Of a DNA stretch of 44,982 nucleotides, positions 19,376-31,134 are shown in pieces. The position numbers and the translations under genes were made by a program. The DNA is taken from the UHGV virus genome UHGV-0308808. The stretch is one strand, 5' to 3'. Positions within the stretch are counted from its first letter, which is position 1; each line of letters opens with the position of its first letter. This DNA comes from a virus. Under the pieces are notes generated by a model. The model did not search any database, was not told the DNA's origin, and saw nothing but the letters and a program-made list of their open reading frames with translations.

Positions 19376-20809
19376 ATGTCGAATAGTTCTTCTTTTCCTG
19401 CTAAAATTTCAGCTATTTATTGCAGGGAAAGCACAGAAAAGCAAAATATACAAAGTCTTATAGATATGTGTAAAAAAGCTGCTAAAAAAATAAATCTTCA
19501 AAATATAAAAGTTTATTATGATGTAGCATCTGGGTACAATAAAGACAGAGAACAATATAGTAAATTAAAAGAAGATATCCAAAATAATTTAGTTGATACT
19601 TTAGTATTGTATGAAAGTTCTAGGCTTACAAGAGATGAATTGGAGCATCATATATTTTATGGATTATTAAGAGTTCATAATGTTAAAGTTTATACTGTTA
19701 CACATGGTTGGTTAGACTTACAAGATGCTGATGATACCTTTCTGACTAATCTTTTAAATTTATTAGATGCTAGAGAGGGAAGGAAAACAGCTAAAAGAAG
19801 TAAGGACAGAATGACTGAATTAGCAGAGCAAGGGAGATGGACTGGAGGACCAGCTCCCTTGGGATATAAATTAGTTAATAAAGAGCTGGTAATAGTTCCA
19901 GAGGATGCAGAAAAGGTTAAAACTATTTTTAAACTTTTTCTTGATGGAAAAACCAGACAATCCATTGCTAATTTTTTTGGATATGAAGTAAAAAAGGTTA
20001 GAAGATTATTAGAAAATCCCGTCTACATTGGAAAATTAAAATTCCATTCTGTTGAAATAATTAATAAGAAAAAAATTCTTCATAAAGATTATAAAGTGTT
20101 GAATGGGATCCATGAGCCTATTATAGATGAAAGTACTTTTTCCCTGGTACAAGGTAAATTAAAAAATATTAAGGTTGAAAGAAATACAGATGTATATATC
20201 TTTAAAGATTTAATAAAATGTACTTGTGGAAGAAAGATGTATCGGGTTGTAAATAAATATAATTATTTAAAAAAATCAACCAATGAAATTTCTAGAAAAA
20301 CAGAGAACCTATATTATTGTAGAACTTCTGATAAATATAAAAGTCTTGGGTGTGGTGCTATTGGTATTCATGAAGAAGAGTTATTTGAAGAAGTTATGGC
20401 TTCTTTAAAAAAAATTATTTTTTCTTTAGAAGTAGAGAACATTGATACCAAATTTGATGATTATCAATCTCAATTAGTTCTTTATAAAAAAGAGTTGGCT
20501 TCTCTCTCTGGAAAAGAAGAACTCCTAGCCAGGCAGTTATTAAACTCTCTTATATCTGAGGAAGTTTTCGAAAAGTTAATGAAAGAGTTAAAAGAAAAAA
20601 AGGCGTTCCTGGAGGAAAAAATCAAAAATTTAACTACATTAATTACTAATAAAAAAAATACTAATAAAAATTCAGAGATATTAAAAAAATATTTTTTTAA
20701 ATTAGAAAAGGAAAAAGCTCCAGAAAAAATAAATAATTTTTTAAAACTTATAATAGATGAAATCGAAATGGTAAATGATTATAGATTCTACATCCATTTA
20801 AAATTTTAG
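19376..20809 (+). CDS. large serine recombinase (resolvase/invertase catalytic domain, recombinase domain and zinc ribbon)
   Basis: The N-terminus has AIYCRESTEKQ, the serine-recombinase catalytic motif. C-terminal Cys clusters are CTCGRKMY and YYCRTSDKYKSLGC. Length is 477 aa. Confidence 0.8.
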   Translation: MSNSSSFPAKISAIYCRESTEKQNIQSLIDMCKKAAKKINLQNIKVYYDVASGYNKDREQYSKLKEDIQNNLVDTLVLYESSRLTRDELEHHIFYGLLRVHNVKVYTVTHGWLDLQDADDTFLTNLLNLLDAREGRKTAKRSKDRMTELAEQGRWTGGPAPLGYKLVNKELVIVPEDAEKVKTIFKLFLDGKTRQSIANFFGYEVKKVRRLLENPVYIGKLKFHSVEIINKKKILHKDYKVLNGIHEPIIDESTFSLVQGKLKNIKVERNTDVYIFKDLIKCTCGRKMYRVVNKYNYLKKSTNEISRKTENLYYCRTSDKYKSLGCGAIGIHEEELFEEVMASLKKIIFSLEVENIDTKFDDYQSQLVLYKKELASLSGKEELLARQLLNSLISEEVFEKLMKELKEKKAFLEEKIKNLTTLITNKKNTNKNSEILKKYFFKLEKEKAPEKINNFLKLIIDEIEMVNDYRFYIHLKF

Positions 20810-23972: not shown

Positions 23973-24126
23973 CTTCTCCTTTTTTAGCTTTTAATTTAAA
24001 ACTATCTATATAATCTTTAGTTCCTTCTTTAAAAGGTCTTTTAAAAAAGTTGGCTCTTATATGTAGTACTTCAAGTGCACTTAAAATTACTAAAAATATT
24101 GTTATTATTATCCATACTTTTGTCAT
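23956..24126 (-). CDS. small TM protein (56 aa) overlapping the endolysin start; not in the ORF track
   Basis: MTKVWIIITIFLVILSALEVLHIRANFFKRPFKEGTKDYIDSFKLKAKKGEDEDVK has an N-terminal TM helix and a charged tail. Confidence 0.3.
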   Translation of the reverse strand: MTKVWIIITIFLVILSALEVLHIRANFFKRPFKEGTKDYIDSFKLKAKKGEDEDVK

Positions 24127-24139
24127 TTATCTTCACTCC

Positions 24140-24673
24140 TTATAAACTTTTTACTATGTCTGCTATCTTATTGATTTCAACTTCTAGTTCTTGCATCTTT
24201 TCTATAATTAGTTGTATTTCCTCTTGAGTACTAAATTTAGAATTTTCCAAAGCTTTTTTATTCTCCTCAAGCTTTGAATATTCCAGTATCTTATCAGCTC
24301 TCATTTTAACAAACTCATCATGTGTAGTTCCTTCATACCAGATATGATTTTCTTTATCCCAAGCCTTTTTGTAATATCCTAATTTCTCATCATACTCAAC
24401 TTTAATAAGCTTTCCATTTTCTATATATTCTCCATCATCAAGAACTATAATTCCCTCTATTTTTAGTTCTTCTTGAGTTTTTTCTCTAATCAAATTAGTT
24501 TCTTTATCTATAATAGGATATTGTAATTTATCTTTAGAAGCATACATTCCCTCTTCATTCCAAATTGGATAAAACTCTTGAGGATTCTCTATAAACTCTT
24601 CATAATTAGTAACATATGGTTGCCCTATTAGTTCAAGTTCTTTGTTGTAAATGTAAACTATTATATTCTCCAT
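24140..24673 (-). CDS. hypothetical protein
   Basis: 177-aa ORF between the recombinase and the lysis genes. Confidence 0.4.
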   Translation of the reverse strand: MENIIVYIYNKELELIGQPYVTNYEEFIENPQEFYPIWNEEGMYASKDKLQYPIIDKETNLIREKTQEELKIEGIIVLDDGEYIENGKLIKVEYDEKLGYYKKAWDKENHIWYEGTTHDEFVKMRADKILEYSKLEENKKALENSKFSTQEEIQLIIEKMQELEVEINKIADIVKSL

Positions 24674-24920
24674 GATTTTCTCCTTTTTTTCTTATTTTAT
24701 GTGTAAATTATTGAATTTCATCAAAGATTAAAAAAATTTAAAATGTAAAACTCTTTATAAAATATAGATTTCTAAACTTTCGAAATAAATTAGCAAATAC
24801 TTTTTGAAGTAGAAGTAATTTTTATTAAAAAATATAGAAAGCTAAGTAAAATAAGACTTTTTAATCTTTAAAAAATTTTAGTTTATGCATAAATTCAATA
24901 ATTTATTCAAATTTTTAGGC

Positions 24921-25880
24921 TTAAATTAGCCCTTTTTCTCTCTTTAATTGCCTAATTTTTTCTCTATTTTCTGCCCCTGTTTTTGCTTTAATATAATGCT
25001 CTCTAGTAGTATTTATATTATTATGATTAGCAAATTCAGAAGCTGTATTTATATCTGCTATATTCTTTAAAAGGTTTATAGCTGTTTTTCTGAGAGTATG
25101 AGGGTATAACTTATCATTTCCTAATAACTCTCCTATCTTTTTTATTCTACTTCTAATAGTAGATTGAGCCATCTGTCTACATTGTCCACCTTCCTTTGTT
25201 ATAAATAAATAATCTGATACTAAATTATTCTCTTTTCTATACTCTAGCCATTCTTGTAACACCTTTTCAGTATTATCAAGAAAAATTACATCAACTATCT
25301 TATTACCTTTTTCTTTTACATCTTTAAAATACCCCTCTTTTAAGTTTAATTGTGAAAGTTTTAAATTTTGTATTGCTGAAATTCTATTAGCACTTTCTAG
25401 GAATAATTCCCAAAGTAATCTAGATTGAATATCAAATTTCTTTGAATTATGTTGCATAAGTATTCTAGCTTTGATTATGTCCTCTATTGTAAGATAATAG
25501 CTTTCTCTTCTCTTATCAAAACTACCTTTTTTTAACCTATCTAATTTATGCTGAAATGGATGATGAGATATTAAATCTCTTTTCACACACCAGATATAGA
25601 ATGAAGAGATAGCTGTAAGCTTGTTATTTATTGTCTGATTATTGTTACCAGCTTCCCTACAATGATTTATATACCTCTCTAAAATAGAGACACAATTTTT
25701 TATTGTACTATCGCTTAATAATAGTCTATTCCCTTCATATTTCTGTAAATACTTCATATACTGTTTCATATTACTCTTATAAACTCTATAAGTAGTATTT
25801 AAAGTTTCATAGTTCCTTGCTTTGTTACTCTCTAAATACATTTGATAAACTTCCATATTAGCTTTGTTAAATTTTTCCAT
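24921..25880 (-). CDS. tyrosine site-specific recombinase, proposed shufflon recombinase (Rci-like role). The start is re-assigned to ATG 25880 (MEKFNK), preceded by AGGAGGA.
   Basis: Catalytic residues are conserved: the Arg in ESANRIS, the His/Arg in HTLRKTAIN, and the Tyr in REHY. The gene sits immediately next to the half-site at 25934-25947. Confidence 0.75.
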   Translation of the reverse strand: MEKFNKANMEVYQMYLESNKARNYETLNTTYRVYKSNMKQYMKYLQKYEGNRLLLSDSTIKNCVSILERYINHCREAGNNNQTINNKLTAISSFYIWCVKRDLISHHPFQHKLDRLKKGSFDKRRESYYLTIEDIIKARILMQHNSKKFDIQSRLLWELFLESANRISAIQNLKLSQLNLKEGYFKDVKEKGNKIVDVIFLDNTEKVLQEWLEYRKENNLVSDYLFITKEGGQCRQMAQSTIRSRIKKIGELLGNDKLYPHTLRKTAINLLKNIADINTASEFANHNNINTTREHYIKAKTGAENREKIRQLKREKGLI

Positions 25881-25933
25881 TTTGTTAAAATCCTCCTGTA
25901 ATTTAATTTTGACACTATATTGTATCAAATTTT

Positions 25934-25947
25934 AAATTACAGAATTT
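25934..25947 (+). repeat. crossover site 1 (boundary half-site, AAATTACAGAATTT on the plus strand)
   Basis: Read directly. The left arm is degenerate. Confidence 0.8.
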
Positions 25948-26245
25948 CATTATATCTAGTGGTTCTAACACTAATGGATATTATAGAAAATATTCAGATG
26001 GATTTATAGAACAATTTGGTACTTTTAATTTTAGTGGTGGAACTAATGCTTCTATTAAAAGAACTTTACCTATAAGTATGAAAACTACAAATTATATTAT
26101 AGTATGTAATCCTAATTTTGCTTTAGAGCGAAACTCAGCCGCTTGGGGTATTGTTAATCCTACAGCTAAAACAACTACAACAATAACTTTTAAAAAAGCT
26201 CATTCAGAAACTACAGATGTTTACTGGTATGTATGTGGATATTAA
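25934..26245 (+). other. silent fiber C-terminal cassette D (+), 103 aa: KLQNFIISSGSNTNGYYRKYSDGF...VYWYVCGY
   Basis: In-frame from site 1, with no start codon or RBS. Confidence 0.7.
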
Positions 26246-26550
26246 GTACCTAAAGTTCTCCAATAAATTTTATTCCCTCTTTCAGCTTGAACTTTAAAAT
26301 TATTTAATGTAATACTATGTATTAGAAATTCTGCTGATTCAGTCCAAAATTCTGTATTTCCTCTGTTTGTAGCACTAATATTATAATTAATATTAGTATA
26401 TTTTATAGGAAGAGTAATTAAAGTTGCACGAGTTCCACCATTAGGATATGATACAATACCACCTTGTTCAATTATTCCATTAGAATATTTTATATAATAT
26501 GTTCCATCACTATTAAACTTCATATCAAGTATCTGAGGTAAATTCTGTAA
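26242..26550 (-). other. silent cassette E (-), 102 aa: LQNLPQILDMKFNSDGTYYIKYSNGIIEQGG...WRTLGT. It is convergent with D.
   Basis: In-frame from the minus-strand arm of site 2. It includes track ORF 26242..26523. Confidence 0.7.
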
Positions 26551-26561
26551 TTACAGAATTT
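26540..26561. repeat. crossover site 2, perfect 22-bp palindrome AAATTCTGTAATTACAGAATTT
   Basis: Read directly. Confidence 0.85.
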
Positions 26562-26823
26562 CATTAATGTTGGAACAAGTTATTGTTATATAGGAGGTAT
26601 CTTAATCCAATGGGGAACATTAAGCGGATTGAAAGCTAGTACTACTATTTACCAAACTTTTCCTAAAGCATTTAAAAATACTAATTATTCTGTTGTATAT
26701 CAAAAAATTAGTGCTGACCACAGCAATAATACTCCTATGAAAACTTCTGTAAAAGAAACAACTAGATTTGGAGTATATTCTTATGGAGTTTCTAGTGTAG
26801 ACTGGTTAGCAATAGGGGTTTAA
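26551..26823 (+). other. silent cassette F (+), 90 aa: LQNFINVGTSYCYIGGILIQWG...VDWLAIGV
   Basis: In-frame from site 2. It includes track ORF 26629..26823. The codon before the L codon is TAA. Confidence 0.7.
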
Positions 26824-27062
26824 TATCCGATTGCTAACCAAGGAATAGATCTTGGCTTCGAACTAGCTCCAAAGTTCATATCATTAAAATAAAAATATTC
26901 ATTAGTCCAACTTATAGTAGGATTAGCACCAGCAGTAACAATTGTAAAACAGGTATTAAATTTCACTGGAAAAGTTACTTTACTAGAACCAGATTTACCC
27001 CACTGTAATAACAGTTTTCCAATATAACAATAATTACTGTTCATTGTAGTTAAATTCTGTAA
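26820..27062 (-). other. silent cassette G (-), 80 aa: LQNLTTMNSNYCYIGKLLLQWG...IPWLAIGY
   Basis: In-frame from site 3. It includes track ORF 26820..27044. It is convergent with F, with the stops overlapping. Confidence 0.7.
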
Positions 27063-27073
27063 TTACAGAATTT
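27052..27073. repeat. crossover site 3, perfect 22-bp palindrome
   Basis: Read directly. Confidence 0.85.
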
Positions 27074-27353
27074 AAATAATAATTTTTATGAATACTATCC
27101 TAACACAAGAGAATTTAATATTCCTATAGAATTTAACAATGCTTTAATTTCAGTATGGACTTACAATACAACTACTGCTAGTATGGAAGATACTCCAATG
27201 TATCTTTTTACTTTTTTAGTAAAAGATATTGATGTTTTTAAATTCTATAATGGTGTTAGTGGTGGATATGCTTCAATTGATTATAATAATAAAAAATTAA
27301 TTAGTTCATCTATTCATTACATAAGAAAGATAAATATTTTTATATTTAATTAA
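27063..27353 (+). other. silent cassette H (+), 96 aa: LQNLNNNFYEYYPNTREF...IRKINIFIFN
   Basis: In-frame from site 3. Confidence 0.65.
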
Positions 27354-27357
27354 ATAT

Positions 27358-27627
27358 TTAAATACCAATAGCTATCCAGTCAAAACTCATTGTTCCAGAA
27401 ACTCCACCAACGTCTTGAGAATAATATGTAAAATAAGTAGAAGTAACATTAGTTACTTGTAATATATTATCTATGTTTGAAGGTTTTTCTGTCCTTAAAC
27501 TTTGGGAAGTTAAGACTACAATATTTTTTTTAATAAAAGGAGATGAAAATATAAGTTTTCCAGTTTTAGCATTTGTTATATTTTCTAATCTACCTATTTT
27601 TATTTCAATACCAAGTAAATTCTGTAA
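27358..27627 (-). other. silent cassette I (-), 89 aa: LQNLLGIEIKIGRLENITNAK...MSFDWIAIGI
   Basis: In-frame from site 4, convergent with H. Confidence 0.65.
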
Positions 27628-27638
27628 TTACAGAATTT
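27617..27638. repeat. crossover site 4, perfect 22-bp palindrome
   Basis: Read directly. Confidence 0.85.
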
Positions 27639-27927
27639 AGGCGATATCAATAAAAATACAATAGGACATTTTACGGATATAACAGGAATTAAATTTTGTT
27701 GGGGAACAACAGGAACATTATCTGCCTCAAGTAATACTTTAATAACTTTTTCAGAGGCATTTAAAGAAAAAGTTTTTTCTATTCAAGCTACAATATTATC
27801 TAATTCAGGAATAGCAGGAAATAAGTCAGATTATGTTTTTGTAAACTCCATAACTTTATCTAATTTTAAATTAAAAATTGGTTCTGATTATGGATTTGCA
27901 GTATCTTGGTTAGCAATAGGCTATTAA
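27628..27927 (+). other. silent cassette J (+), 99 aa: LQNLGDINKNTIGHFTDITGIKFCWGTTG...FAVSWLAIGY
   Basis: In-frame from site 4. Confidence 0.7.
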
Positions 27928-28178
27928 ATTCCAATTGCTAGCCAAGGAATTTTTACACTATTAGGTTTCCCAGATACTCCCCAGTTTGTATCGTTAAAAT
28001 TAAAACTAGTTAAAGTCCATGAAATAGTTGGAGTATTACCAGATGTTATAACAGTAAAAACTGAACTTTTAAAAGGAATAGGAAAACTTTTACTTCCAGT
28101 TGTTGTAGCTCCAGTTTGAATAATAAGTCCATTGGTAAATTGGATATATTTACCAATGGAGTTAGAATTTAATACCTG
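27924..28178 (-). other. orphan cassette C (-), 84 aa: TGLNSNSIGKYIQFTNGLIIQTG...KIPWLAIGI. It is homologous to cassette G but lacks its own crossover site, and begins 1 nt after the cassette B stop in the +1 frame.
   Basis: Manual translation. It shares SK.FP.PF and TPTISWT motifs with G. Confidence 0.5.
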
Positions 28179-28512
28179 TTATTTTAAAGATAGATGAACC
28201 ACCATCTTTACCAAAAATATAAAAGGATTGTTTATTAGCTAAAAATCTATAATCAAGACTCCCACCTTTTGGTAATAAATATCTATCTCCAATTTGATTA
28301 TCACTAGTACCATCAGAATATTTTAAATCAGTTACTAAAATAAATTGACTTTCTTCATCTACTTGTCTTGTTCCAGTCCAATTGCCATAAGTAATTATAA
28401 TAGCATCAAAGTTAGTAAGTGGTTTATTTAAATTCAATACAGTATTATTTGGAGATTGTGAAGTTGTATTATATAAAATTTCTATTTTAAATGTAGATAA
28501 ATTCTGTAATTT
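28162..28512 (-). other. silent cassette B (-), 116 aa: KLQNLSTFKIEILYNTTSQSPNNTVLNLNKPLTNFD...ITGIKF. It lies directly 3' of the fiber stop, in the same orientation.
   Basis: In-frame from site 5. It includes track ORF 28162..28437. Confidence 0.65.
28499..28512 (-). repeat. crossover site 5 (half-site AAATTACAGAATTT on the minus strand), immediately after the fiber stop codon
   Basis: Read directly. Confidence 0.8.
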
Positions 28513-30498
28513 TTATATATATGGGAAAAAGGTTATAGATTGAGAGTCATACCCTCCTGCACAATAGATTACGTCTTCTTTCTTTACGGGATATATTAAT
28601 CTAGTAGCAGAACTATCTCTTGTTCTATAATCTAGATTAGTACCATTTATCCTTATTGTAGTAGTTATATCATTTGAACCATAGAAGTGTATCTGAATAA
28701 TTCCATCTTGAAGTATTGTGTTATTTTTACTCCAATTTAATTTTTGTCCTTTTGAATAGTCAGGAGTTCTATTGAAATTCTGTAATTTACCCAATAAATC
28801 ATTATTAGATATTGCTTCAAAGTAATTTGCGTCTGCATAGTTTATACTTGTAGCTTTTATACATTTGTAAACTTTTTTTGTGGTACTATCATAATAGGCA
28901 TAGTTTACTGTCTTTGCACTAGAAGTATTAAGACTTCCTCCGTATGTAAGTCCTAATATCTCGGCTAATTTAGCTCCTTCTAATACTGTATTTGAAGTAG
29001 TTCCAAAATTTTTATTAAAAGCTCCATTTTTTTTGAAGGCTGGTTCTGCTCCTATTCCACTAGCTGTAATATTAATACTTTTAGCTGCTGCTCCATCATA
29101 GCTCACTGGATTTTGTCCATTCATCTTTATTTCAAGAGCATTAGGATTTTTCATACTTGTTGGAAAATCTGTAATATTTGCTTTTGTATGAGTATGACTA
29201 GAATCAGCAGCTCCTATGCTAGCTGGAGTAATATTAATATTTTTAGTAGCTGCTCCATCATATGTATAAGCAGTTCCACTATTTAATTGAATAGATAAGG
29301 CATAAGGATTTTTCATACTAGCAGGAAAGTCTGTGATATTTGCTTTTGTATGAGTATGACTGCTTGGAGTAAAAGAATTAGGTTTTCCTGTAATATCACT
29401 CCAAGTAATATTTGTCCATTGAGCAGCTCCAGATGATAACCATTTTAGAAAATTTCCACTAACCCCATTTGCAGGTATATGATTATTTCCATTCCCAGTA
29501 GGATGAGTATATTCAGGAGTTCCATGTAATGTTCCATCTTCATCAACTGTTAAATTATTCCCTACCTTTATTCTTCCTAATTGTGTTTTAGTTGCTTTTT
29601 TTACTAGCTCATTATAAAGTTCATTAATGGCTCCAACTATTGTTTTTACCACGGTTTTTAGAGTGCTATCTTCTTTATTTTGTTTAGTTTCATTTAAAAT
29701 TTTTCCTTGTTTACCTGAAAGAGCTTTTGTAGTACTATCAGTTGTAAGATTATCTACTACATTTAATTGAATATCATTATCATTAACAATAATACCATCA
29801 TTTTTAGATACAATAGAGGTCCTTCCAGAACTATCAACAGTTAATCCTTTACCTATAATTATTCTTCCTAATATAGTTTTTGATGCTATTTTAGAAATTT
29901 CTGTTAATAAGTTCTGTGCAGTACCAGTATAACCACCTTTATCTAATTTATTAGTAAAAAGTTCATTTATTGCTTCCCAAACAATTTTGGCAGCTGTCAA
30001 TAATCTATTTTCATGTAAATTTTGTTTTTTAGCCAATTCTTTATCTAAATATTCTTTATCTACCCATAATTCTTTTCCTGTCCAGTTAACTATTGTAGTT
30101 TCATTATTAGTAGCCATTATATTAACATAATATCTAAATTTGATTGGTGTCTTGCTTGCTGGCGGCATCCAGGTAGCTTCATCACCTTCATTTATATACC
30201 AGTACAGAATTTCTTCTTCTTCATCTAATGCGTATATTCCTATTTCTCTTGGAAAGTATCCAGTTTCAATATCTTCATTACTAAATAGTACAGTTAATTT
30301 CAAATTATTTTCTATTTGTTTTTTTTCTAATATTTCAACTTCTTGTTTTATTGCTTTTATATTAGTAAATGTGCTAGGATCCTCATCATCTGATATTTTT
30401 CCATCTCCTATTTTTACTTTAACTAATTTTATTCCTTCTCCTGTTGCTTGGCATTTTGCTAAATATTCGCTCCCTCTCTTTGTAATACCATCAAACAT
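28513..30498 (-). CDS. tail fiber protein. The currently expressed variable C-terminus (cassette A) runs 28513-28788.
   Basis: 661 aa, Ser/Thr/Gly/Asn-rich. It contains internal near-repeats HTHTKANITDFP[AT]SMKNP. It lies downstream of the baseplate genes and is followed by the shufflon. Confidence 0.75.
   Translation of the reverse strand: MFDGITKRGSEYLAKCQATGEGIKLVKVKIGDGKISDDEDPSTFTNIKAIKQEVEILEKKQIENNLKLTVLFSNEDIETGYFPREIGIYALDEEEEILYWYINEGDEATWMPPASKTPIKFRYYVNIMATNNETTIVNWTGKELWVDKEYLDKELAKKQNLHENRLLTAAKIVWEAINELFTNKLDKGGYTGTAQNLLTEISKIASKTILGRIIIGKGLTVDSSGRTSIVSKNDGIIVNDNDIQLNVVDNLTTDSTTKALSGKQGKILNETKQNKEDSTLKTVVKTIVGAINELYNELVKKATKTQLGRIKVGNNLTVDEDGTLHGTPEYTHPTGNGNNHIPANGVSGNFLKWLSSGAAQWTNITWSDITGKPNSFTPSSHTHTKANITDFPASMKNPYALSIQLNSGTAYTYDGAATKNINITPASIGAADSSHTHTKANITDFPTSMKNPNALEIKMNGQNPVSYDGAAAKSINITASGIGAEPAFKKNGAFNKNFGTTSNTVLEGAKLAEILGLTYGGSLNTSSAKTVNYAYYDSTTKKVYKCIKATSINYADANYFEAISNNDLLGKLQNFNRTPDYSKGQKLNWSKNNTILQDGIIQIHFYGSNDITTTIRINGTNLDYRTRDSSATRLIYPVKKEDVIYCAGGYDSQSITFFPYI
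28775..28788 (-). repeat. crossover site 6 (half-site), inside the fiber gene, encoding KLQNF at the constant/variable boundary
   Basis: Minus-strand reading gives ggt AAA TTA CAG AAT TTc, translating GKLQNF. Confidence 0.8.
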
Positions 30499-30558
30499 TT
30501 CTTATAACCTCCTCTATTTTATATGGTGTTAAATTGAGATTATTATTTATTGTTATTT

Positions 30559-31134
30559 TTATAACCCCCCAGTGAATTCTTTTTCTATTTCTTTAACTTG
30601 AAAAGAAGCGAATTTCATTTTACTTATTTCTCTGGTGATTTCAATATCTGTAGTATCAATAACACTTCTACAATTTTTATATTTGCCAATAATTTCAATT
30701 AATTTATCAATCCAATTTGGGTCAGAATTTATATGGTTGATAGTTACTTTAAAAGTATAAGGTTTCCCATCATATTCAAACCATTCATGCAAAGTAATTG
30801 GATAACCTAATTTTTCAAGGTTCTCTTCAATTATCTTTTTAGTCCCTTTTTTAGAATATGACCAATATGCATTTTTAATTAATTTTATTTTAACCTCTCT
30901 ATCTAAATTCTCTTGCCAATTATCTACCATATATTGATAAGCTAATTCTGATAAAACTTCATCTGTCTGTAATTCTAAATTTTTAAATATTGCTAATTTC
31001 GGAAGTTGCGAAATTATCTCTTTTTTTAATTGCTTTTCTAATTCTAAAGACAAAGATTTTAAATTTTTATATTTTTTTAAATTTTCTGGGAAAAAAAATT
31101 GGTAATCAGTATCACATAGATTATATTTACTCAT
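30559..31134 (-). CDS. phage tail protein, XkdU/YmfQ (DUF2313) or P2 gpI-like
   Basis: 191 aa. It sits between baseplate J and the fiber, as in the PBSX/P2 order. Confidence 0.45.
   Translation of the reverse strand: MSKYNLCDTDYQFFFPENLKKYKNLKSLSLELEKQLKKEIISQLPKLAIFKNLELQTDEVLSELAYQYMVDNWQENLDREVKIKLIKNAYWSYSKKGTKKIIEENLEKLGYPITLHEWFEYDGKPYTFKVTINHINSDPNWIDKLIEIIGKYKNCRSVIDTTDIEITREISKMKFASFQVKEIEKEFTGGL

Follow-up and report, generated by a model that had tools for sequence, protein, structure and literature searches.

The virus genome UHGV-0308808 (44,982 nucleotides; hereafter the window, whose positions serve as coordinates throughout) contains, at 25935–28787, what is very probably a tail-fibre shufflon, carried by a P2-like prophage from a host of Fusobacterium type, and this shufflon is working or was working recently. 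The 13-mer AATTACAGAATTT has nine exact copies in the window, all of them inside this region, against an expectation of 0.01. Each is followed in frame, on its own strand, by 80–115 open codons, a remarkable length at a G+C content of 29%, and so provides one of nine interchangeable C-terminal tips for the fibre. Six of the nine copies are the halves of three perfect 22-bp palindromes, while the remainder stand at 25935(+), 28499(-) and 28775(-). The evidence favours reading each palindrome as two complete, overlapping and oppositely oriented crossover sites rather than as one symmetric site.

A preliminary description, made from the sequence alone, had drawn attention to perfect palindromes at three internal positions (sites 2–4; Table 1), and the 22-mer AAATTCTGTAATTACAGAATTT indeed recurs there without a mismatch, beginning at 26540, 27052 and 27617, and was not found in any of 100 dinucleotide-preserving shuffles. 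Its geometry is likewise as described, being two inverted 13-mers that share a central AATT, but the term 'half-site' does not hold, since the 13-mer works alone. Each 13-mer has inverted arms of 4–5 bp, (A/T)AATT...AATTT, flanking an asymmetric centre, ACAG, and is read in frame as K-L-Q-N at the boundary between the constant and variable parts of the fibre. Conservation acts on the DNA and not on the protein, because the Gln codon of the sites is always CAG (18% of Gln codons in the open reading frames [ORFs] of the window) and cassettes that begin with Phe all use TTC (20% of Phe codons), against codon preference in both cases. Among distinct cassettes, the cassette-side flank is also conserved, with A or C at position 14 in 48/48, C or T at position 17 in 43/48 and A at position 18 in 38/48; on the other side nothing is conserved beyond AATT. 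Since the AATT arm is self-complementary, two divergent cores can share it with a 4-bp overlap, and, once each 13-mer is invariant, the 22-mer is bound to be perfectly symmetric, with no need for additional selection.

The expressed fibre gene lies downstream of P2-type baseplate genes, that is, homologues of baseplate J and P2 gpI (Pfam Baseplate_J and Tail_P2_I). It consists of a constant part extending down to 28788, followed by K-L-Q-N and then by cassette c6. Several of the silent cassettes align with the C-terminal ~90 residues of PHROG tail-fibre families. Segments between palindromes contain two convergent cassettes each (c1/c1', c2/c2' and c3/c3'), and the last segment contains c4, a site-less remnant (X), c5 and the expressed c6. 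Stop codons of convergent cassettes overlap in TTAA, which reads TAA on both strands, at 26242–26245 and 26820–26823; with overlaps at both head-to-head (AATT) and tail-to-tail (TTAA) junctions, the shufflon has hardly any non-coding base. The remnant X (…PWLAIGI*) has lost ~10 N-terminal codons and 15 nt internally, is joined directly behind the c5 stop and is probably dead; intact homologues that retain a site occur in three of the other loci compared with the window, which are designated by L-numbers (L004, 5257(-); L092; L097).

Table 1. Positions of the shufflon, its recombinase and associated features in the window.
Feature	Positions	Strand	Description
Large serine recombinase	19376–20809	+	477 residues; Resolvase, Recombinase and Zn ribbon domains
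Second invertible element	24706–24903		172-bp non-coding segment (24719–24890) between inverted AATTATTGAATTT cores at 24706(+) and 24891(-)
Xer-like tyrosine recombinase	24921–25880	-	319 residues from ATG at 25880; ribosome-binding site AGGAGG
Site 1	25935–25947	+	Solitary core; fixed boundary, 55 bp upstream of recombinase start codon
c1	25937–26245	+	102 codons + stop; silent; PHROG tail-fibre C-terminus (4.4e-6); expressed in L103
c1'	26242–26550	-	102 codons + stop; silent; expressed in L094; at recombinase boundary in L110
Site 2	26540–26561	both	22-bp palindrome; two overlapping cores
c2	26551–26823	+	90 codons + stop; silent; expressed in L003/L009
c2'	26820–27062	-	80 codons + stop; silent; PHROG tail-fibre C-terminus; at recombinase boundary in L103
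Site 3	27052–27073	both	22-bp palindrome; two overlapping cores
c3	27063–27353	+	96 codons + stop; silent; at recombinase boundary in L105
c3'	27358–27627	-	89 codons + stop; silent; expressed in L090
Site 4	27617–27638	both	22-bp palindrome; cores 27617–27629(-) and 27626–27638(+), AATT common to both
c4	27628–27927	+	99 codons + stop; silent; PHROG tail-fibre C-terminus (2.3e-5)
X remnant	27925–28160	-	5' end and crossover site lost
c5	28162–28509	-	115 codons + stop; silent here; expressed in L104 and L105
Site 5	28499–28511	-	Solitary core; direct orientation to site 6; directly after c6 TAA stop
c6	28513–28785	-	90 codons + stop; currently expressed
Tail-fibre gene, present state	28513–30498	-	ORF of 661 residues; Pfam Phage_fiber_rpt (5.5e-10); PHROG tail fiber protein (6.4e-46)
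Site 6	28775–28787	-	Core inside expressed gene; GGT AAA TTA CAG AAT TTC (G-K-L-Q-N-F)

Evidence that these sites recombine comes from naturally occurring isomers of the locus. A megablast comparison with 50,697 phage records found no match, as did a first scan of genome contigs with the 22-mer, and a scan of genome contigs with the recombinase protein returned only four loci; scans with the 22-mer retrieved 4 loci from IMG/VR and 13 from metagenomes, and exact look-up of the recombinase protein placed it on contigs from many samples. Ten loci encode an identical recombinase, and in seven of these (L103–L108 and L110) the cassettes are 100% identical to those of the window. Among the identical-enzyme loci, cassette order is that of the window in L106, L107 and L112, and differs elsewhere. 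Megablast blocks break at 25933/25935, 25947, 26561, 27064, 27615/27617, 28512 and 28775, all of which are edges of the 13-mer. The constant flank of the fibre gene at site 6 is joined to c6 in the window, L106, L107 and L112, but to c1 in L103, c5 in L104 and L105, c3' in L090, c1' in L094 and c2 in L003, such that six of the nine cassettes have been seen in the expressed position; c6 itself is a silent cassette, placed either behind a palindrome or at the recombinase boundary, in L003, L096, L097, L099, L105, L109 and L111. In other loci, five different cassettes adjoin the upstream flank of site 5, tcccatatatataaa, and the fixed flank beside the recombinase, ttgtatcaaatttta, is followed by c1, c1', c2', c3, c5 or c6.

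The preliminary description had taken the palindromes to be crossover sites and had suggested that recombinant junctions be sequenced; natural isomers now supply such junctions, which fall inside the 13-mer, and no crossover outside the site was found. The base at position -1 goes with the upstream flank, and a T13A variant remains attached to its own cassette although the upstream sequence differs between L089 and L097, which places the exchange within AATTACAGAATT. It had also been proposed that each palindrome serves both strands, and this is borne out by sites 2 and 4, whose minus-half cassettes (c1' and c3') are expressed in L094 and L090 respectively, and by the plus-half cassette of site 2 (c2), expressed in L003; hence, both halves of the palindrome are used.

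Whether deletion accompanies inversion had been raised as well, and two loci indicate that deletion or insertion has occurred too. L103 contains only c1/c1' and c2/c2', with block 25933–27064 inverted and 27065–28774 absent, while L104 corresponds to the window minus 28513–28774 (between the direct sites 6 and 5) and minus 26562–27614 (between palindromes 2 and 4). Their remaining DNA is 99.6–100% identical to the window (99.7–100% in L104) and the breaks lie at directly oriented cores. The missing segments provide evolutionary evidence that recombination between direct cores, either excision or the reverse, has happened. This argument rests on L103 and L104, since cassettes are missing outright there; L090 was rejected as a proof of deletion, being reachable from the window order by two inversions.

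The presumed invertase is the Xer-like tyrosine recombinase encoded between the shufflon and the second element. It has a Pfam Phage_integrase domain (8e-26) and SAM-like N-terminal domain(s), and its catalytic residues (R, H-x-x-R, H and Y) show no variation across four relatives. XerA and XerD are its best solved relatives, its best NCBIfam and PDB matches are to XerC, XerD and XerA only, and the protein ends 23 residues after the catalytic Tyr312. The enzyme co-varies with the core sequence across lineages. A large serine recombinase, near the end of the region in common with other copies, is probably the prophage integrase; it could account for integration, leaving the tyrosine enzyme free to serve as an invertase. 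L103 and L104 part from the window sequence below about 21444. Promoter-like matches across 24000–31000 are no commoner than in shuffles (42 versus 44.8), for which reason we do not rely on a TTGATA-17-TAAATT match between site 1 and the recombinase start, and assign no promoter to the 172-bp segment beyond the recombinase. A degenerate trace of the core, AATTACAGGAGGA, overlaps the ribosome-binding site of the recombinase at 25892–25904 on the minus strand.

The recombinase family is represented in at least 179 IMG/VR loci, most of them ~49% identical to the window protein and of the type found in phage Funu1. The Funu1 record (KR131710) encodes a homologue with 49% identity, AKC57555, at the same gene position, and its gene order is that of the window: baseplate J, tail protein I, fibre, small convergent ORFs, recombinase. 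The same core family is present (TGGAAAATCTA), in one copy by a strict pattern. No shufflon is annotated in that record, and we found no paper in the searchable literature describing a shufflon in Fusobacterium phages, Funu1 included; in the section compared here (L102, KR131710.1 31789–39921) the enzyme is annotated as 'integrase', and the fibre and small convergent ORFs as 'hypothetical protein'. Funu1-like loci have the core T(G/A)GAAAAT(C/T)TA, and their back-to-back divergent cores are separated by 3, 6, 7, 8, 9 or 10 nt, with two spacings inside a single locus (L046), whereas those of the window overlap. In a Cetobacterium lineage, the recombinase of which is 77% identical, five cores (AATTAAAGAATTT) are all in tandem and none is back-to-back. 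The C/T polymorphism of the Funu1-like core was considered for crossover mapping and dropped, as it does not segregate cleanly with cassettes. In part of the Funu1-like branch (L028 6925–7012; L044, L046, L054 and L088; L102 5002–5012) a core lies within the first ~10 codons of the recombinase gene (…L-E-N-L-K-K-E-N…), in the opposite orientation to a boundary site some 66 bp upstream; an inversion at this place could turn round the start of the recombinase gene itself.

A second invertible element lies between the recombinase stop codon and a 177-residue gene that precedes the lysis genes. Its inverted cores have the arms of the shufflon core with ATTG at the centre instead of ACAG, and both fit the cassette-side pattern at positions 14, 17 and 18. 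L110 and L009 contain the exact inverted isomer of the 172-bp segment, with 0 mismatches and unchanged flanks. All lineages examined have an equivalent switch element, which in the Funu1 branch measures 121 bp and takes one orientation in 17 loci and the other in 20. Five lineages have two site sets each, beside the sole recombinase gene seen in the locus, with shared arms and different centres; shufflon and switch centres are, respectively, ACAG and ATTG, ACAG and ATTC, AAAG and ATCG, AAAT and TTGA, and GGAA or AGAA and TTCA or TTTA. Both sets are found inverted in nature, and hybrid junctions between them were absent from the loci examined. In Cre/lox and Xer/dif, heterology in the spacer is the basis of an analogous incompatibility between sites. 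By that analogy, the simplest reading would be that the arms are recognised, and that the centre lies in the strand-exchange region and sets both orientation and compatibility. It is possible, and we propose it tentatively, that a single Xer-like recombinase drives two separate programmes through a 14-bp core, AAATT-NNNN-AATTT, with the 4-bp centre as an orthogonality code. If so, ACAG cores would shuffle nine tips and ATTG cores would flip the 172-bp switch without the sets ever cross-reacting, and overlapped cores would be bidirectional double sites supporting both inversion and precise excision. This would constitute a very compact, naturally multiplexed recombination toolkit, and a so far undescribed host-range and regulatory switch would be widespread in Fusobacterium prophages, given the at least 179 IMG/VR loci of the family.

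On our preferred reading, the crossover site of the shufflon is the short core (A/T)AATT-ACAG-AATTT with a weakly conserved cassette-side extension, and the neighbouring Xer-like enzyme, if correctly identified, would recombine any two inverted cores. Inversion would flip the intervening DNA and place a different 80–115-codon tip on the fibre, with nine usable tips available. Each of the neighbouring invertible segments begins with a core pointing inward, adjacent cores being packed head to head with a 4-bp overlap, and this packing automatically yields a perfect 22-bp palindrome with TAA before each cassette; the palindrome is then most likely two sites, used one at a time. Strand exchange would occur across the central ACAG, which would confer direction and partner specificity, and the exact positions of cleavage likewise belong to the presumed part of the scheme.

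The alternative that survives best is that each 22-mer is one symmetric site, with arms of 8–9 bp (AAATTCTG and CAGAATTT) around a palindromic TAATTA spacer, solitary 13-mers being half-sites with one degenerate arm and direction coming from the flanks. Such a 22-mer would be built as arm, spacer and arm, the canonical layout for tyrosine recombinases; the additional conservation in the cassette flank (positions 14, 17 and 18) would be in keeping with it. Symmetric sfx sites are known to allow excision as well as inversion (PMC11852207), and segment-lacking copies are seen here. We nevertheless consider it unlikely. Solitary 13-mers work alone, at the expressed site, at the recombinase-side boundary and in tandem positions, and natural junctions show that they recombine with palindromic copies; the key site in the expressed gene was always solitary in the loci examined. 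The first base of the supposed spacer would differ between partners (A versus T). In L003, L089, L094 and L095, palindromes made imperfect by T13A in one half are found next to cassettes that are intact. Relatives point the same way, with back-to-back distances that vary from 3 to 10 nt, even within L046, and a lineage at 77% recombinase identity that has no back-to-back sites at all. Finally, the two site sets beside one recombinase gene differ at ACAG and not at AATTA. The fully symmetric single site of the preliminary description is thus not sustained, nor is its corollary that asymmetry must lie in the flanks, which is not required because the ACAG centre is itself asymmetric; the asymmetric ACAG within each 13-mer is the most likely source of direction. 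Its analogy with the one-armed sfx sites of Rci has some support in the one-sided, cassette-side conservation, which does resemble them (PMC11852207); the core also has its own dyad arms of 4–5 bp.

The same description had noted TAA before the cassettes of the palindromes and AAA at sites 1, 5 and 6, and sequence comparison agrees: TTA is preceded by the codon TAA in all six palindromic halves and by AAA in the copies at 25935, 28499 and 28775. Recombination does place AAA (Lys) before the incoming cassette, as it had anticipated. Its view of TAA as a silencing cap belongs to a wider explanation, namely that palindromes were selected for a job other than recombination, as in-frame stops or as hairpins or terminators insulating cassettes from read-through. 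This would account for the TAA before each palindromic cassette, for the capacity of the 22-mers to fold as 9–11-bp hairpins (z-scores -3.8 to -6.1), and for tandem arrangements in which T+AA, or a TAA just ahead of AAA as at site 5, really does end the upstream cassette. We give this explanation very little credence. The TAA follows arithmetically, since an overlap of 4 nt makes position -1 the complement of core position 5 (A) and so forces T+AA, and Funu1-like back-to-back sites, with their other spacings, have no in-frame stop. The hairpins are weak (-6.5 to -8.5 kcal/mol) and A+T-rich with no T-run, a terminator scan found no terminator-like site coinciding with the palindromes, and Rfam gave no match in the window. 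Silent cassettes have neither a start codon nor a promoter to silence; with no place to begin translation and 570 codons of upstream gene missing, they are silent anyway. Hence, the TAA is incidental and is not evidence for a silencing cap. A search for tandem repeats in the window found none that was relevant.

Least credible is the notion that the arrangements are assembly artefacts or products of general homologous recombination between related phages, for, even though many loci are short-read metagenome contigs and several end at palindromes, the 13–22 bp of identity at junctions is shorter than usual assembly k-mers, so that each junction must have read support, and too short for efficient RecA recombination, while the same junction rules recur in independent samples and in the apparent long-read assembly L103, and a dedicated recombinase co-varies with the core across lineages. 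L103 is a 2.78-Mb contig with 'polypolish' in its record name and appears to derive from a polished long-read assembly, to which the problem of chimeric paths should not apply. Contigs of at least eight loci (L090, L091, L092, L095, L099, L100, L108 and L110) begin or end within about 60 nt of the 22-mer, and 35 of 58 index blocks with the recombinase have contigs under 2 kb; both observations fit the coexistence of several arrangements in a sample, given the behaviour of assemblers with mixed populations.

Several considerations do weigh against overlapping double sites recombined by the adjacent enzyme. Tyrosine recombinases usually contact 9–13 bp per arm, and conserved arms of 4–5 bp are short by that standard, such that the true site must include non-conserved DNA. 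An Rci-like arrangement is possible, in which AATTA is the spacer and CAGAATTT a single specific arm. The link between enzyme and site is drawn from adjacency and co-variation. Lastly, short-read contigs such as L104 may follow chimeric paths through a mixed population, in which case some arrangements, though not the junctions themselves, may be absent from any single molecule.

Tail-fibre genes subject to programmed inversion form a recognised class (PMC9881135); this locus stands out for its bidirectional cores that overlap, for how short the core is, and for having a second switch whose centre differs. Among described systems, the one nearest in layout and enzyme type is the Rin shufflon, found in Bifidobacterium prophages and based on an asymmetric 11-bp site, rix (Mavrich et al. 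2018, PMC6109161). Both have a phage-encoded, XerD-like tyrosine recombinase without an arm-binding domain, a constant N-terminal receptor-binding or tail gene on one side and the recombinase on the other with promoterless C-terminal cassettes between, a short asymmetric repeat before each cassette, and inversions between related prophages (PMC6109161). All three layout features of a Rin-type shufflon are thus present in the window, that is, an adjacent Xer-like enzyme, repeat-led cassettes and breakpoints at the repeats. It differs from Rin in phylum and phage type (a P2-like myovirus baseplate), in its unrelated 13–14-bp core, AATT-ACAG-AATTT, which lies in the reading frame as K-L-Q-N, and in its head-to-head overlapping palindromic cores, overlapping convergent stops and adjoining non-coding switch with a different centre.

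The R64/IncI shufflon (Rci, sfx and pilV) also performs multiple inversions with a tyrosine recombinase, exchanging the C-terminus of one gene among convergent partial ORFs, and the conserved part of its site is short and one-sided, the other arm being variable (PMC11852207), a feature that the site here may share. Rci carries a specific extra C-terminal domain (PMC11852207), which the window enzyme, ending where it does after the catalytic Tyr, lacks. Furthermore, the target here is a phage tail fibre and not the pilV pilus-tip adhesin of a conjugative plasmid, and segment-lacking copies with breaks at direct repeats exist, whereas wild-type Rci is reported to be inversion-only. Katalinic et al. 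set aside two Rci homologues with palindromic repeats (PMC11852207), so palindromic junctions may occur unexamined elsewhere. A tblastn search of plasmids with the recombinase gave 300 records in which Escherichia and Salmonella were not among the leading organisms, with no IncI-type matches and no detectable similarity to IncI plasmid genes. Homologues at 31–40% identity were seen on Bacillus, Limosilactobacillus, Ligilactobacillus and Vagococcus plasmids of about 108–148 kb, which are possibly phage-plasmids.

Gin, Cin and Min (of Mu, P1 and p15B) are serine recombinases acting at 26-bp sites, with a crossover of 2 bp and an enhancer that depends on Fis; the matching chaperone gene is included in their invertible segments, and Min of p15B is a multi-segment system. 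The window shufflon resembles them in choosing alternative tail-fibre C-termini, and hence host range, by DNA inversion, and differs in its tyrosine enzyme and in tips of about 90 codons without chaperones of their own. A serine-invertase layout was not found, the only serine recombinase in the window being the large one of 477 residues, which is of integrase type and lies 4 kb away.

Phages and prophages of Fusobacterium are under investigation as tools for countering F. nucleatum in colorectal cancer and periodontitis, and a switch among nine receptor-binding tips would bear directly on the prediction of host range and on the design of phage therapy. For recombination biology, the natural junction series narrows strand exchange to 12 bp, and the short core, the overlapping bidirectional sites and an apparent centre code separating two site sets may serve as compact, orthogonal inversion modules.

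Two further configurations of the locus were observed. L105 (ERZ27258817 k141_36932) has the identical recombinase and 100%-identical c3, c3', c4, c5 and c6 behind a different fibre and baseplate, on a backbone of Phage_Mu_Gp48 type with a 545-residue fibre; the cassette-plus-recombinase module apparently moves between phage backbones. In L002/L093, a related fibre gene is accompanied by three cassettes and a single palindrome, but a recombinase gene is missing and a homologue of window 24140–24673 comes immediately after the shufflon; this copy is either frozen or served in trans. In the fibre shaft, at about 29134–29361, a 54-codon repeat (…SHTHTKANITDFP.SMKNP…) is present in one copy fewer in the window than in L103, L104 and L106, and fibre lengths (661 versus 715, 727 and 740 residues) differ because both repeat copy number and cassette length vary.

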